IMG/VR virus record: IMGVR_UViG_3300010376_000121
Coordinates: 1-25,805 of that record
DNA from: a virus
Taxonomy: Duplodnaviria > Caudoviricetes
DNA: 25,805 bases
Reading direction: 5' to 3' (one strand)
The position numbers were made by a program, and so were the translations under genes. This document shows, piece by piece, positions 3,579-23,428 of the stretch. The notes beneath the pieces are model-generated. The model saw only the letters and a program-made list of their open reading frames with translations. It did not search any database and was not told the DNA's origin. Numbering within the stretch: the first letter of the stretch is position 1; every line of letters begins with the position of its first letter.

Positions 3579-4036
3579 TGCCAATCATCCGCACCTACGG
3601 CTGTGAGGCCTGCAACCACATGCTCACGGTCGAACTGCGCGCCGACCAGTGGGACACCCCACCGCCGGACTGCCCGATGTGTGCAGCGCACCCGATGGGG
3701 CAGGAATTCAAGCTCTCGATCGGCGGCTCGGCGCGCTCCCGCGCCACTGACCTGGCCCAGAAGATCGCCACCGAGGACTATGGCGTTGCGGACATCCAGA
3801 TCGACGGCAAAGGCCAGGGCGAGGTGCCGAAGGTGCGCTATCAGGACCAGCCGACGAACCTGCCCTCGGCCGCCTGGGAGGCCAACCGAGAGATGCTCGA
3901 GGGCGCGATCGCGATCGGGCGCGAGAGCAGGCTGCGCTACGGCAGTGGCCTCGATGTGCTGCAGGCCGGCTTGGCATCGGGCGCGCAACCTGACCTCATT
4001 GCGGCCTCGAAGAGGCGCAGCATCAGAGGCTTTTAA
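3578..4036 (+). CDS. Zinc-ribbon protein (FmdB-like N-terminus)
   Basis: MPIIRTYGCEACNH...PDCPMC pattern. Coupled to the portal gene by TAATG. Confidence 0.7.
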   Translation: MPIIRTYGCEACNHMLTVELRADQWDTPPPDCPMCAAHPMGQEFKLSIGGSARSRATDLAQKIATEDYGVADIQIDGKGQGEVPKVRYQDQPTNLPSAAWEANREMLEGAIAIGRESRLRYGSGLDVLQAGLASGAQPDLIAASKRRSIRGF

Positions 4037-5814: not shown

Positions 5815-6255
5815 ATGTCGGATAGCATATCCGCAGACCCTGCACCGCAACCGACGCCGCCTATCGGGGGGCCACCGAGACCTGGCGGGGGACCTGTCCC
5901 GCCAGTCCTGGCTGCCTTGGCACGCGCGCGTCAGGGCCAGGCTGCCGGCGGTACCCACCCCGGTGCCGGGGCACAGGCGAACGCTCTGATGACGATTAAA
6001 AGCGCCATCGACATGCTGCAGAACGCCCTGCCTGGGCTGGGCACCGGCGGCGAGGCGCATTCCGCGGTGCTGACGGCGATCCGCGCGCTGTCGCGCCATG
6101 TGCCCCAGGGGGAGCCGACCGCGGGCGTCCAGCAGACGCAGCTACAGGACATGCTGCGCCAGACCATGCGAAACGCGCTGTTGCAACGGGTGATGGCGCA
6201 GCAAGGCGGCGGCCAGCAACCGATGTCTCCATCCGTCCCAATGCCGGGAGCATGA
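5815..6255 (+). CDS. Pro/Gln-rich head-module hypothetical protein
   Basis: Co-oriented ORF between portal and scaffold with a helical core. Confidence 0.75.
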   Translation: MSDSISADPAPQPTPPIGGPPRPGGGPVPPVLAALARARQGQAAGGTHPGAGAQANALMTIKSAIDMLQNALPGLGTGGEAHSAVLTAIRALSRHVPQGEPTAGVQQTQLQDMLRQTMRNALLQRVMAQQGGGQQPMSPSVPMPGA

Positions 6256-6256
6256 C

Positions 6257-6448
6257 ATGGCTCAGAACAGATCATATGACCCGCCCATCGGTTCGCCTCC
6301 GGACACACCGCCGCGGACCATCCGCCAAGTGGATACCCAATCGGAGGTAAGCGAGTGGGGCGCGATCCCTCGCGTGGTGCCTCGGCCGGCTGGTGGGGTG
6401 CCGTTGCAACGGACCATCGTCGGTCGCTCTGAAGGACCAGTTCGGTAG
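6257..6448 (+). CDS. Small head-module hypothetical protein
   Basis: GGAG RBS, tight packing with neighbours. Confidence 0.65.
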   Translation: MAQNRSYDPPIGSPPDTPPRTIRQVDTQSEVSEWGAIPRVVPRPAGGVPLQRTIVGRSEGPVR

Positions 6449-10040: not shown

Positions 10041-11603
10041 ATGCCGCTGCAGTCGGCGAACCTTCCAGACCAGGTCATGCTCTCGCAATGGGCCGGGGTT
10101 AACCAATCCAGCCCGTCGCGCTCCGCGATCAATGATCAAGAGACGTTCTGGCAGGAAAACTTCTTCCCCTACGCCCCCGGTCAGATCCGCGCCGGCTATG
10201 GGCCTTCGGCGGCGATCTACACCGCGCCTGCCGGCTCCTCGATCCTGCGCATGTTCTTCGGCCGGGTGAACGACAGCCAGGGTCCGACCGCGCTGATGTT
10301 TCTCAACACCGGCGTGGTGCACCAAGTGCTGCTCAATACCGGCGCCGTCACGGCACTGGGCACCATCTGGTCCCCGCTGGACCCCTATAACTTCGCCAGC
10401 GCGAAGGTCTGGCAGCCACAGCAGGTTGGCTACACCACCGGTACGCCGGGCGGCTGGGTGATCGGCTCCACTGCCGGCCTCTATGCCTGGGACGGTGCCA
10501 CGCTCACCGCTCCTGGCCAGGCTGCCCCGGCCTGGCTGACCAACGGCCAGACCACCACGATGCCCACCGTCGGCTCGTTGCCGGGGATCTGGGCTATGGC
10601 GGTCTGGCAGAATCGGCTGTGGGTGATCGGCAAGACGGTGCTGTCCTGGTCCGCGCCCTACAACGGCGCTGACTTCTCGACGGCCAACGGCGGCGGCTCG
10701 GTCGCCTTCGTCGGCGACCAGCTCACCGTGGGCTACACCGATCTCGAGGCGGCCGGCGGTTTCCTCTACCTGTTCGGCGATTCGATGATCAACGTGATCA
10801 GCGCGTTACAGTTGTCCGGGTCGGGTACGATTACCGCACCGTTCACGACGACGTTCCTGAATTCCAACGTTGATCCTCAGATCGGCCACCGCTGGTGGCG
10901 GCCGGCGGCGCGGTGGAGCCAATCCTTCGCGCTCTCGACCGGCATGGGCATCTATCTGTTGCAGGCGAACACCACGCAGTGGGTCTCGCAGAAGGTGACC
11001 GAGGTCTACAACAGCACAGCCTCCTCACCGGTGCCGACCGGTACTGCCGCCACCATCTTCGGCCAGCGCTGGCTGTTGTTCCTGGGACAGATGCGCGATC
11101 CGTACGGTGTCACCCGATCGCTGATCCTCTGCTTCAACGGCTCGCAATGGGTGATTGCCTCGCAGCGCTATGCGCTCACCCTGATCGGTGCCTATGAGGA
11201 GCAGAGCATGATCACGCCGTACGGCACTGACGGCACCAGCCTCTATCGCCTGTTCGCCCAGCCTGACCCAGCGTTGGTGAAACAACTGCTGACCAAGGCC
11301 TACAAAGGCCAGCACAACCTGGCGATCAAAACCTGGAAGCGCGTGTATGCCGAACTGCGCGACTACCATGGCGGGCCGCAAGGGGTTAGCGTGATAGGAA
11401 CGATAACGACAGGAGGGGGAGGCATACCCAATGGCACCCAGGCGGTGTCGTTCCAGATGGAACCGGCAGGTTACAACACCGTGCCACAGCCAACCGATGG
11501 CGCCGGTCTCTGGGCGTCGCTGGACCTGGTGTCGCAATCTCCGGACTTTGCCATCGAGAGTTTGTCGCTGACCTATGAGGAGCGCACTCTGTTCGGGGCA
11601 TGA
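10041..11603 (+). CDS. Tail nozzle / packaged-DNA stabilisation protein (P22 gp10 / T7 gp12-like)
   Basis: 520 aa beta-rich protein with ENFFP, AVWQNRLWV...LSWSAP and LYLFG propeller-type motifs, in the expected position. Confidence 0.82.
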   Translation: MPLQSANLPDQVMLSQWAGVNQSSPSRSAINDQETFWQENFFPYAPGQIRAGYGPSAAIYTAPAGSSILRMFFGRVNDSQGPTALMFLNTGVVHQVLLNTGAVTALGTIWSPLDPYNFASAKVWQPQQVGYTTGTPGGWVIGSTAGLYAWDGATLTAPGQAAPAWLTNGQTTTMPTVGSLPGIWAMAVWQNRLWVIGKTVLSWSAPYNGADFSTANGGGSVAFVGDQLTVGYTDLEAAGGFLYLFGDSMINVISALQLSGSGTITAPFTTTFLNSNVDPQIGHRWWRPAARWSQSFALSTGMGIYLLQANTTQWVSQKVTEVYNSTASSPVPTGTAATIFGQRWLLFLGQMRDPYGVTRSLILCFNGSQWVIASQRYALTLIGAYEEQSMITPYGTDGTSLYRLFAQPDPALVKQLLTKAYKGQHNLAIKTWKRVYAELRDYHGGPQGVSVIGTITTGGGGIPNGTQAVSFQMEPAGYNTVPQPTDGAGLWASLDLVSQSPDFAIESLSLTYEERTLFGA

Positions 11604-11638
11604 AAAAGCCGACGCCGGTGTCCCGCCAGCGTCGGTTT
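11603..11638. terminator. Terminator-like hairpin, possibly bidirectional
   Basis: AAAAA-GCCGACGCCGG-tgtcccg-CCAGCGTCGG-TTT. Followed by 5 T on the minus strand and 3 T on the plus strand. Confidence 0.5.
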
Positions 11639-11701
11639 GCAAGAGCGTTGGTCAGAGTTCCATTGCGCTTACATCGTCACTCTGGCCAGAGGAGAAGTCA
11701 A

Positions 11702-11743
11702 ATGGCTCGTCGTCGTAGGCATCGCCGTTCTCGGCGCCGGTAG
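11702..11743 (+). CDS. Protamine-like peptide 1: MARRRRHRRSRRR (13 aa)
   Basis: AGGAG at 11690-11694, 7 nt before ATG. 9/13 Arg. An in-frame upstream ATG exists at 11600. Confidence 0.72.
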   Translation: MARRRRHRRSRRR

Positions 11744-11863
11744 TTGGCGCGTCTCGGTCGCGGTCGGGGACGGCGCCGGCTCTACGGAGTCGGTCTGCCG
11801 CACCCCCGGCCGCCACTGTTTCGGGGCCGCGTCACCGGGTCTCGACGCAGTAGGAGGCGCTAA
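11744..11863 (+). CDS. Protamine-like peptide 2: (M)ARLGRGRGRRRLYGVGLPHPRPPLFRGRVTGSRRSRRR (39 aa)
   Basis: TTG start abuts the TAG of peptide 1. 14 Arg, no D/E. TAATG overlap with peptide 3. Confidence 0.62.
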   Translation: MARLGRGRGRRRLYGVGLPHPRPPLFRGRVTGSRRSRRR

Positions 11864-11943
11864 TGGCGAGACGTCGCAGAAGCGGCCGACGCTCGCCATT
11901 GCGAGGCGGACGCGCCGGTCCAGTTCGTAGAGGGAGGCGGTAA
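11863..11943 (+). CDS. Protamine-like peptide 3: MARRRRSGRRSPLRGGRAGPVRRGRR (26 aa)
   Basis: AGGAGG at 11852-11857, TAATG coupling at both ends, 12 Arg. Confidence 0.78.
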   Translation: MARRRRSGRRSPLRGGRAGPVRRGRR

Positions 11944-12008
11944 TGGCTCGGAAGAGGTTGAAGCAGACTCGCAGAGCGCGTCGCATGAGGGCGCGCAAGA
12001 GGCGCTAG
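11943..12008 (+). CDS. Protamine-like peptide 4: MARKRLKQTRRARRMRARKRR (21 aa)
   Basis: GGGAGG at 11932-11937, TAATG overlap, 10 Arg + 3 Lys. Confidence 0.78.
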   Translation: MARKRLKQTRRARRMRARKRR

Positions 12009-12095
12009 ATGGCTCGCCGTCATAGGCGGCGCATGGTGATGGTGCCGGCCTCGCGGTCGGCCGCACGTGCCCGTCGACGCGGCCGGCGTCGGTGA
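12009..12095 (+). CDS. Protamine-like peptide 5: MARRHRRRMVMVPASRSAARARRRGRRR (28 aa)
   Basis: AAGAGG upstream, ATG abuts the previous TAG, 13 Arg, GTGA overlap with the nuclease gene. Confidence 0.75.
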   Translation: MARRHRRRMVMVPASRSAARARRRGRRR

Positions 12096-12610
12096 AGGCG
12101 CCGAAGCGTCTCAAGCTAAGGATTCCGGAACCTCCGGAAGATTCGCTGCACAAGTCAGTCGCGGATCTGCTCGATGCACACCTATTGCTACCCGCGACGT
12201 GGACTACCTTTCCGGCCGGGCTGTACGTGCTGAACCCTGCGGCAGCGGGGCGGCTCAAGCGGCTCGGTCTGAAAGCCGGAATGCCCGACATCCTGGTGTT
12301 CTGGCATGGCTGCGTCGGCATCGAGCTCAAGCGGGACAGCGGCACCCGACAGCGCGAGCAGAAGTTCATGCACCTTCGTCTCGAGGCCGCCGGCATCCCT
12401 GTCTATGTGTGCCGTTCGCTCGAGGCGGTGGCTGACGCACTGGTCCGGCACGACGTGCCGCTGCGGGCTTCGGTGGTGCGCGCTCTGCTTGACCGGCCAT
12501 ATCGACCGGCAGAACGTGCGATCGACGTAGGGGAGACAGTCAATGGCAAGCACACGGGCACAGAAGCGAGCGGCGCGGCGCAACCTGCGCAAGGCGCGCT
12601 CCCGGCGTAG
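12092..12610 (+). CDS. VRR-NUC family (PD-(D/E)XK) endonuclease
   Basis: PEDSLH...GLKAGMPDILV...GIELKR...Q...EQKF...GIPVYVCRSLE. Confidence 0.88.
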   Translation: MKAPKRLKLRIPEPPEDSLHKSVADLLDAHLLLPATWTTFPAGLYVLNPAAAGRLKRLGLKAGMPDILVFWHGCVGIELKRDSGTRQREQKFMHLRLEAAGIPVYVCRSLEAVADALVRHDVPLRASVVRALLDRPYRPAERAIDVGETVNGKHTGTEASGAAQPAQGALPA

Positions 12611-12620
12611 GCGGTACTGA
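12543..12620 (+). CDS. Protamine-like peptide 6: MASTRAQKRAARRNLRKARSRRRRY (25 aa)
   Basis: GGGAG RBS at about 12531-12535. 10 Arg + 2 Lys, no D/E. TGATG overlap with the 12620 ORF. Overlaps the nuclease gene tail in another frame. Confidence 0.72.
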   Translation: MASTRAQKRAARRNLRKARSRRRRY

Positions 12621-12943
12621 TGCCAGACGTTAAACGCTCATGGCCATATCTGGGTCAGGCATCCAGCCCGCCGGCTCTGACGCTGACACCGGACGGACTG
12701 CTGAACTCCGCGCGCTCACTCGCAGGTCCTTTGCGCCTGGGTACTGCCGCCGGCGTCGGTCCAAGCGGTGCCCCCGAAGGCGCGTATCGAAACAGCGACT
12801 TCGGAATGGATAGGATTTCGCCGCGGCGGTTTGATCCGATCGGCACCCCGATAGAGCGCTGGCCGAACGGACGTCGCACCTCGCGCCTGGTCGCCGAGCT
12901 ACGCAGCAACACCAACGGCCGGCGGAATGGGAACAACAACTGA
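12620..12943 (+). CDS. Hypothetical protein
   Basis: Coupled start, fills the gap before the needle gene. Confidence 0.6.
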   Translation: MPDVKRSWPYLGQASSPPALTLTPDGLLNSARSLAGPLRLGTAAGVGPSGAPEGAYRNSDFGMDRISPRRFDPIGTPIERWPNGRRTSRLVAELRSNTNGRRNGNNN

Positions 12944-13316
12944 GGGGCTACTCCCGGCCAACGTGCCGTTGTTGCAGCCGGGAACCCCGTACTTCCGTCT
13001 GGTCGACGTCTTGCAGTACACGACCACCGGGAACTCGCAACTGCAGCAAGCGCAGGGAGACATTTCATCGCTACAGAGCCGGATGACAACGGCAGAGAGC
13101 AACATCACAAACCTGCAGTCGCGCATGTCGACCGCGGAGTCGAACATCTCGAATCTGCAGTCGCGCATGACAACGGCGGAGTCGAACATCGCGAACCTGC
13201 AGTCGCGCATGTCGACCGCGGAGTCGAACATTTCAACCCTGCAGTCGCAAACAGCGTCCCTGCAAAATCAGATCAACACAATCAACACGCGGTTGGCGAA
13301 CGCGGGAATCCCGTAA
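12927..13316 (+). CDS. Coiled-coil fibre, tail needle-like (P22 gp26 position)
   Basis: Heptad repeats LQSRM(T/S)TAESNIxx four times, located between the nozzle and the GNAT/ejection genes. Confidence 0.72.
   Translation: MGTTTEGLLPANVPLLQPGTPYFRLVDVLQYTTTGNSQLQQAQGDISSLQSRMTTAESNITNLQSRMSTAESNISNLQSRMTTAESNIANLQSRMSTAESNISTLQSQTASLQNQINTINTRLANAGIP
13071..13248 (+). repeat. Tandem 42-bp repeat, about 4.2 copies
   Basis: Units start at 13071, 13113, 13155, 13197 and partially 13239. Consensus CTGCAGTCGCGCATG...GCGGAGTCGAACAT. Confidence 0.92.
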
Positions 13317-22729: not shown

Positions 22730-23428
22730 TCATGCGGCGAAGTCCAGTTCCAGTTGCTGCCGGCGGCGCACCGTCCATTGCTCCGGACACTGCACCGCGT
22801 CCCATCGCTCGGCCATGCGCTGAGCGTCGTTCTGCGGGCGGTGGTGGTTCTGCCCGACGTCGGAGGAGTCGAGCGAGGCAAATGGCCAGCGCTTCCCGGC
22901 GCACTGCATGCCCCGCAGCATGTGGATCGGTGGCGTTTTGCCGAACGTCGAGATGAGCTGGTCCCACGCTTCGTCTAGCCGGCGCTCCCAGGCCTCCGAC
23001 AGCACCACCGCATGCTCGCCGGCGCTGCCGATGCAGACCCGGCTCCAGCCCGCGTCGACCAGGCGGCACAGCCGGAAGATCGGCTCGTTGGTGTGCCACA
23101 CTGGGCCCGTCTGGAGCTTGCCGAATGGCCATTCGGTCAATAGTGCGTCCTGGATTTGCGAGGGGGCGTCGACCTCATCGGGCGGGACTGCCCAGGTGGT
23201 CGGACAGACCAGCCACCGCTCGCACCAGGCGTAATAGCCTGGCCAATCGGTCTCGAAGCCTTGCTGCCATTTCGAGTAAGCGCCGTTGTCGAGCATTACG
23301 CTCTGGCCGATGCCGTGAACGTGCCTGATCTGCTCGGGCCGCATATGGCTGACCGCAAAGCATCGGCCGGCGAGCCGATACAGCGTGTCCAGTGGCGTGA
23401 TAGGCGTGCCGTGAAAGTGCAGCGTCAC
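22730..23428 (-). CDS. TGT/DpdA-like (7-deazaguanine transglycosylase fold) protein
   Basis: VMLDNGAYS (compare DSG of TGT/DpdA), PD, PVWH, IHMLRG and ASLDSS motifs in TGT order. Confidence 0.62.

Follow-up and report, generated by a model that had tools for sequence, protein, structure and literature searches.

An arginine-rich micro-peptide gene cassette in the virion module of a podophage lineage, with candidate protamine-like products

Background

Can a run of open reading frames (ORFs) of 13 to 39 codons be a set of genes and, if so, what would a tailed phage do with several tiny proteins made largely of arginine? The question is raised by positions 11702 to 12620 of a 25,805-nt viral DNA (IMG/VR record IMGVR_UViG_3300010376_000121; this whole stretch is called the window below), where a sequence-only reading had noticed six such ORFs. 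The DNA of tailed phages is usually viewed as near-naked, its charge balanced by small cations and polyamines, with the internal proteins of T4 as the main exception.

Results

The window is a circular-looking, podophage-type genome of 25.7 kb with overlapping ends and a GC content of 65%. Among sequencing runs, its DNA is best represented in a soil metagenome, which may be its source; no RNA run is among those listed, which says nothing on expression. PHROG searches identified a terminase large subunit (phrog_2), a major head protein (phrog_9953) and RecE/RecT-like genes, and a 568-aa gene that starts at 4036, itself without a family match, aligns with genes whose GenBank relatives carry a portal annotation. 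The landmark upstream of the cassette is a 520-aa tail nozzle gene (10041..11603, plus strand), whose product gives an AlphaFold model with a pLDDT of 92 and finds its best Foldseek matches in podophage tail/nozzle chains (9nwi, E 6e-20; P22 gp10-gp26, 8eap, E 5e-15). It is followed by a 98-nt spacer (11604..11701, plus strand) with two hairpins (fold z -2.9) and the SD site of the first micro-ORF; the spacer is terminator-like on the minus strand, and ACATCGTCAC is common to it and to the spacer of one relative, L001. On the other side, a conserved 107-aa gene (12620..12943, plus strand), which is coupled to the last micro-ORF and had no match in PHROG or Pfam, is followed by a tail-needle-like coiled-coil gene (12927..13316, plus strand; phrog_1219 tail needle, E 7e-12). 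In the window, the PHROG and Pfam scan matched neither a tail-fibre nor an endolysin family, and Rfam matched nothing anywhere in it, the spacer included. Elsewhere there is a solitary queuine tRNA-ribosyltransferase-like gene (22730-23428, minus strand; phrog_887, E 2e-34), possibly a DNA-modification transglycosylase. A GP[V/L]R motif occurs in a small head gene (6257-6448), in the third micro-ORF (11863-11943) and in the 107-aa gene, and may mark a common binding partner.

All six micro-ORFs lie on the plus strand where they had been placed, and we assign them, in order, to peptide families A, G, F, B, C and D. ORF1 (11702-11743; family A) has 13 aa, 69% of them Arg, and is SD-led; ORF2 (11744-11863; family G) has 39 aa, 36% Arg, a TTG start and a YG..PRPP core that is conserved in alignment; ORF3 (11863-11943), a GPVR-containing peptide of 26 aa and 46% Arg, is a short form of the roughly 55-aa family F. 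They are followed by ORF4 (11943-12008; family B, 21 aa, 48% Arg, core T-R-R-A-R-R) and ORF5 (12009-12095; family C, 28 aa, 46% Arg, core VPASR), and then by ORF6 (12543-12620; family D, 25 aa, 40% Arg, core AARRNLRK), which overlaps the 3' end of a resolvase gene in another frame. Their charges add up to a net +73 over 146 residues. Acidic residues are absent and the Arg content is 36-69%, in agreement with the roughly 35-70% given before, and each of the junctions that had been described (TAG|TTG, TAATG, TAATG, TAG|ATG and GTGA) is present. Two parts of that description need amending. The peptides do in general end in an Arg run, except for ORF6, where the run precedes a terminal Tyr. Likewise, ORFs 1-5 adjoin one another, but the six do not form a single tandem row, since a VRR-NUC/resolvase gene (12092..12610, plus strand; 172 aa) separates ORF5 from ORF6, and it is this gene that the GTGA junction after ORF5 opens. 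An SD scan found sites for five of the six ORFs; ORF2, coupled only to the stop of ORF1, has the weakest start. A longer, 47-aa version of ORF1, starting at an ATG that overlaps the nozzle stop (11600), was rejected, its extension being open in one of 56 related loci, the window itself. We also rejected TAG read-through joining the ORFs, since TAG is the stop codon of the terminase gene, of the portal gene and, in the related loci, of 75 of the 264 peptide genes.

A scan of viral contigs seeded with the nozzle returned no relatives, and the capsid protein therefore served as seed. This IMG/VR scan yielded 133 related loci, of which 80 were kept (74-86% identity). Fifty-four of 81 sequences, the window included, had the full nozzle end and 1.2 kb beyond it. 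In these, SD-led basic micro-ORFs that begin M[AP][RKS] number 98 in the 64.8 kb past the nozzle (1.51/kb), compared with 8 in 968 kb of same-strand control (0.008/kb) and 1 in 1,032 kb of opposite-strand control (0.001/kb), an enrichment of about 190-fold. The whole interval from the nozzle to the homolog of the gene at 12620 is spanned in 56 of 88 sequences (53 clusters at 95% nucleotide identity), and every one of these 56 close loci has between two and seven basic micro-peptides, 264 in total with a caller that favoured MAR-like starts. An SD site precedes 206 of the 264, and either an SD site or coupling is found for 234. Family A occurs in 39 of the close loci, B in 43, C in 13, D in 21, E in 37, F in 30 and G in 5, other peptides being unclassified; the order of the families is shuffled among loci, and A+B fusions exist. 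Capsid identity among the contigs is 78-86% over a size span from about 26-27 kb (27 kb in L001 and L006) up to 41-43 kb (42-43 kb in L004, L020 and L031), these being contigs of unverified completeness. GTDB gave four matches, which lie in MAG contigs from as many families and indicate no host.

Motif-anchored pN/pS is circular for pN and covers family D by two cores only, and for these reasons we relied on 24 disjoint pairs aligned on DNA alone (2,809 codons). Substitution frequencies at the three codon positions were 0.14, 0.11 and 0.38, with 895 synonymous and 445 non-synonymous changes (ratio about 0.2) and two stop gains; starts were retained in 64 of 69 cases and stops in 66 of 72. Indels inside the ORFs showed no excess of multiples of three (44 of 137 in blastn alignments of the 24 pairs), which probably reflects alignment noise at 63-89% identity. 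The non-basic cores of families B, C, D, E, F and G are retained despite saturated synonymous change, the core synonymous divergence of family F being 0.65. Thus, when relatives are collected by capsid homology, as had been proposed, the micro-ORFs are conserved in 56 of 56 loci and vary with a synonymous bias. Taken together, these comparisons support the view that the ORFs of the cassette are conserved, separately initiated genes under purifying selection in a podophage virion module.

The coupling of these genes has a feature of its own. Of 100 coupled junctions, 77 have AGG or AGA among the final five codons, compared with 249 of 1,236 internal windows, and this concentration suggests that the codons of a terminal Arg run also provide the SD for the gene that follows. 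TAATG-type overlaps account for 46 of the cassette junctions, and AGG/AGA make up 20% of Arg codons in the peptides against 11% in the capsid and nozzle genes. The product of the resolvase gene enclosed in the window cassette is Holliday-junction-resolvase-like, on matches to PHROG 93/5702 and PF08774 that are below cut-off. All 56 close cassettes enclose one resolvase type, which by tblastn and motif is VRR in 31, RuvC-like in 15 and PD-(D/E)xK-type in 10; the typing was verified on representatives (eight in Pfam, three in PHROGs), which match PF08774, PF24608, phrog_1770 and phrog_244. By homology, then, the slot is conserved and the enzyme type is swapped. Enzymes of these families presumably debranch DNA ahead of packaging, and for this reason the cassette may be seen as a late DNA-maturation block; we take the resolvase itself not to be a virion protein. 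In one subgroup a Gly/Asp-rich gene of 380-560 aa is inserted past the RuvC-like resolvase (L058:16459, L070:16871, L074:16631, L076:16343, L079:16734 and L080:16879).

The least biased test came from a search for distant loci seeded by the capsid only, in which 80 of 162 loci were kept (61 clusters). Here the capsids are 33-41% identical and GC ranges from 38 to 70%, and 73 of 76 loci have an SD-led ultrabasic micro-ORF between the portal and capsid genes, the other three giving no call. The density in this interval is 0.50/kb, compared with 0.018 and 0.006/kb in controls. A-type counterparts of 10-14 aa sit past the portal, often as stand-alone genes about 100 nt from their neighbours, and Lys takes the place of Arg in members of lower GC. 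Other families recur as well: C in the portal-capsid interval of L258 (capsid 35% identical), D past the portal in L235 and L241, and B in L229 and L231. In IMG/VR the DNA motif of family B occurs at 55 places, each inside a short basic ORF; 50 are post-nozzle in the window clade, and the remaining five, two of which do not differ over the sequence available, lie directly past the portal in phages with about 33% capsid identity. The family-D motif gave nine IMG/VR matches. A generic pattern of an SD plus 13 codons gave 27 matches, all in this lineage and 26 of them at most 800 nt past the portal, whereas a looser pattern, with 31 of 64 parts covered, gave at least 120 loci, of which 28 were noise and 92 were in-frame basic micro-ORFs; 80 of the latter adjoin lineage markers and 12 have too little flank to assign. 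Two peptide-only IMG/VR scans thus gave no match assigned outside this lineage. Two GenBank genomes from Manatee Spring, MW202753 and MW202825 (capsid 36%), have two SD-led 13-aa basic ORFs past the portal, over which antisense hypothetical genes are annotated (L081:476-774 and L082:661-921).

We found no cultured members of the lineage. The cultured phages Mx8, Mx9 and ppBjS10J-1 have remote capsid matches only (22-27% identity), with no micro-ORF of types A-D in the regions fetched. Downstream of its tail genes, L177, a relative at intermediate distance (capsid 54%), encodes a 40-aa D-type peptide and carries a very basic 63-aa gene (5931-6053 and 6125-6316, both on the minus strand). In some A-type peptides the basic run is preceded by a short acidic/hydrophobic leader, which in several cases ends in LE right before ARR (L237, L239, L240 and L242; such leaders also occur at L027:11240, L031:15248 and L043:11011), and an LE-ending leader is, to our eye, reminiscent of the protease-cleaved leader with the T4 motif.

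The sequence-only reading had placed the array in the virion module, which is where it lies, yet it understated the reach of these genes. By homology they are a feature of the whole lineage, which in the window clade is expanded, post-nozzle and always arranged around a resolvase gene. From this spread we infer that the portal-adjacent site may be ancestral and the post-nozzle array derived, although the capsid tree gives no root for this order and the sister groups nearest the window clade are thinly sampled.

Discussion

What could these peptides do? The explanation that we favour, with a probability of roughly 0.55, is that they are polycations produced late, which would pass into the head and offset part of the charge of the packaged DNA, protamine-like in character though without homology to protamines. 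The genes are likely made late because they are set among particle-building genes and because nearly every relative examined in the lineage has at least one of them. They would be co-transcribed with the virion genes and translated in a chain in which each Arg-coding tail doubles as the SD of the next gene, and the initial Met would probably be removed. There may be a division of labour, in which the A type, of 10-14 aa, would contribute charge and almost nothing else, and B, C, D, E, F and G would add their conserved non-basic cores, which may dock on capsid, scaffold or portal; a docking partner is suggested by the retention of these cores under saturated synonymous change. Charge appears to outweigh sequence, given that Lys replaces Arg, the order of the families is shuffled and A+B fusions exist. 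The peptides would enter proheads and lower DNA-DNA repulsion during or after packaging; before this, the neighbouring resolvase would debranch the DNA.

When polycations fully condense the DNA in phage lambda capsids, ejection jams (PMC7377361). For this reason neutralisation is probably partial, or else ejection would not be limited by pressure. By calculation, about 1,050 peptide molecules, or 3.2 MDa compared with 16.7 MDa of DNA, would be needed to neutralise 25% of the phosphates, and such a dose seems feasible because it is close to the roughly 1,000 internal proteins of T4. Gene position alone does not prove packaging, and both the enclosed resolvase, presumably no virion protein, and the position of the cassette among tail genes in the window clade count against it. 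Nor was a capsid-targeting leader common to the peptides seen among the 264 from close loci or in the distant loci.

Among known systems, protamines and sperm nuclear basic proteins are likewise small, Arg-rich and without acidic residues. Published figures are 65-70% Arg for fish protamines, 50-70% for the P-type and 35-50% Arg+Lys for protamine-like proteins (PMC12159748), which places ORF1 within the range of fish protamines and the other five ORFs, at 36-48%, within the protamine-like range. The phage peptides differ in being shorter, in coming from a bacterial-type coupled operon whose several genes are unrelated, and in being nearly free of Cys (0.2% over the 264 peptides); in addition, Pfam gave no match to a protamine model for the five ORFs of at least 21 aa, ORF1 being below scan length. 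Baculovirus P6.9 and adenovirus VII/mu are also Arg-rich, basic and encoded by viruses, and they condense the genome for packaging, which is here a candidate role only. The same source lists P6.9 with about 40% Arg and about 31% Ser+Thr (PMC12159748), whereas the 264 peptides have 36% Arg and a Ser+Thr content, 9%, that is unlike that of P6.9. P6.9 is a single gene under phospho-control and, like VII/mu, belongs to a eukaryotic virus, whereas the cassette has many genes and belongs to a tailed phage, which, unlike baculovirus and adenovirus, pumps its DNA into a preformed head.

Closer to home, a T4 study describes the internal proteins IPI-III as a variable multi-gene set in a tailed phage, present in about 1,000 copies amid the DNA, with basic residues that balance phosphates (PMC3012670). 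In that study it is lysine, not arginine, that contacts the phosphates, the T4 proteins have a capsid-targeting leader in common, and IPI*, an anti-restriction protein of 76 residues, is folded (PMC3012670). The predicted cassette peptides are far shorter and have no common leader: 224 of the 264 start directly with MAR, MPR, MRR or MAK, and the LE leader of a few A types is unshared. Another likeness is to microvirus J, a tiny basic peptide encoded near capsid genes and packaged with a single-stranded DNA genome, although it is a single gene and has a hydrophobic C-terminus. The non-basic patches of E, F and G could likewise serve capsid docking, whereas the C-termini of the cassette peptides are Arg runs and not hydrophobic, and PHROG and Pfam searches found no homology to J.

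Several other explanations have to be weighed against the head-entering polycations. The peptides could be late nucleic-acid binders that stay in the cell, where they would serve resolvase and terminase by chaperoning or compacting progeny DNA, or would silence DNA or RNA of the host. Their composition would suit any nucleic-acid binding, they share no targeting leader, and the constant enclosure of one of three interchangeable resolvase types fits such a role. We nevertheless consider it unlikely, though worth serious attention, because distant members place the genes between portal and scaffold/capsid genes, and because the ORF lists of the distant loci with family B, on inspection, contain no obvious resolvase. 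Binding could also be directed at RNA, at least some of the peptides being arginine-rich-motif (ARM) proteins that read a hairpin and control termination or translation of the late operon, as in the model systems lambda N and HK022 Nun. The cores of B and D, Thr followed by Arg/Ala, seem to us to resemble ARM helices, even though B and D peptides have no match among PDB sequences. Downstream of the peptide gene, at a distance of at most 120 nt, 23 of 73 distant loci have a hairpin with a CGTCA loop and a stem that is complementary but variable (CGTCA(G) hairpins occur in L181, L186, L191, L193, L195, L199, L213, L236, L243 and L256, among others), with a density of 2.1/kb compared with a background of 0.055/kb, about 40-fold; the hairpin sometimes precedes a T run and could act as terminator or as protein-binding site, or be a DNA mini-hairpin. 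It is a lead towards an RNA-binding role, but it is absent from the other 50 distant loci, and the window clade gives 16 of 56 weak, heterogeneous matches that do not trail the cassette. Moreover, A-type peptides swap R, K, G and S freely, unlike a specific reader, and six or seven different regulators in series would be odd. Lambda N-type antiterminators join the ARM to polymerase- and Nus-binding regions and have a cognate conserved hairpin in the operon, whereas the cassette peptides, of 13-39 aa, have no further domain for such binding. A regulatory role is therefore rather improbable in our estimate.

It may also be that translation itself matters more than the product, the ORFs serving as coupling spacers or Arg-sensing leaders, or that the peptides act on ribosomes, as the presumed likeness of G and F to Pro/Arg-rich ribosome-binding peptides might suggest. 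The tight coupling with its TAATG-type overlaps, the Arg tails that double as SD sites and the raised share of AGG/AGA would all be expected from such a role, while the conservation of non-Arg residues under saturated synonymous change, the substitution of Lys for Arg and the stand-alone A-type genes of distant loci would not, and we give it little credence. Marginally less credible still are cationic membrane-disrupting lysis peptides (disruptins) in place of spanins, an alternative that had been raised for this locus. Small cationic peptides would suit it, as would the lack of spanin and endolysin matches among the 43 window proteins scanned and some helical moment in family D (p 0.024 in the window; 7 of 19 below 0.05). 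The disruptin phiKT gp28 is also a small cationic peptide, of a podophage without spanins, but it is amphipathic, has a charge of +7 in 56 aa and binds membranes hydrophobically (10.1101/515445). The cassette peptides, at about 0.5 net charge per residue, have little hydrophobicity (a fraction of 0-18% in the window) and no link to lysis genes; five of the six in the window are not amphipathic, the moment exceeding that of shuffles for ORF6 only. The sole holin-like gene of the window is about 6.8 kb downstream; in MW202825, about 8 kb separate the peptides from the annotated holin. That the genes of distant relatives adjoin portal and capsid genes also favours a role in the head or on DNA over a spanin substitute. 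Finally, at 65% GC one might suspect that the ORFs arose by chance, are a mere shadow of some other gene or reflect faulty assembly, especially since the antisense frame that shares third positions has a similarly low pN/pS (0.13-0.65). Yet the enrichment with SD sites is restricted to one strand, the same peptides occur at 38-50% GC, and successive ORFs switch frame. A long conserved ORF in another frame, which would have spoken for such a shadow, was looked for, and none replaces the micro-ORFs: alternative ORFs of 97, 109 and 47 aa over ORFs 1-5 are unmatched in relatives and were rejected, and the matches of two longer antisense ORFs mostly track the resolvase. We regard this explanation as hardly tenable.

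The peptides matched no known family in Pfam or PHROGs, and G and E had no match in the ESM Atlas, although such a blank does not demonstrate novelty. No multi-gene array of this kind in a tailed phage was found in the open literature, as the sequence-only reading had supposed; small-gene catalogues in subscription papers or supplements may list some of the ORFs. The feature is thus real and defines the lineage, and it is apparently undescribed. It is also of a kind that routine work overlooks, as genes of 10-14 codons escape standard gene calling and tryptic proteomics would shred their products; the two GenBank genomes in which antisense ORFs are annotated over peptide DNA are an example. 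The 10-14-aa type can serve as a sequence marker for the whole lineage.

As a broader reading, which we put a little short of an even chance, a large, uncultivated lineage of podophages in soils and fresh waters would encode a protamine-like kit and pack its DNA as a peptide-neutralised nucleoprotein, and the window clade would have expanded the set around its resolvase. That the expanded set combines interchangeable charge peptides with capsid-docking peptides is a similarly tentative part of this reading. If the favoured explanation is true, a phage-encoded protamine-like set would offer a genetic handle on the charge and pressure of DNA inside the head.
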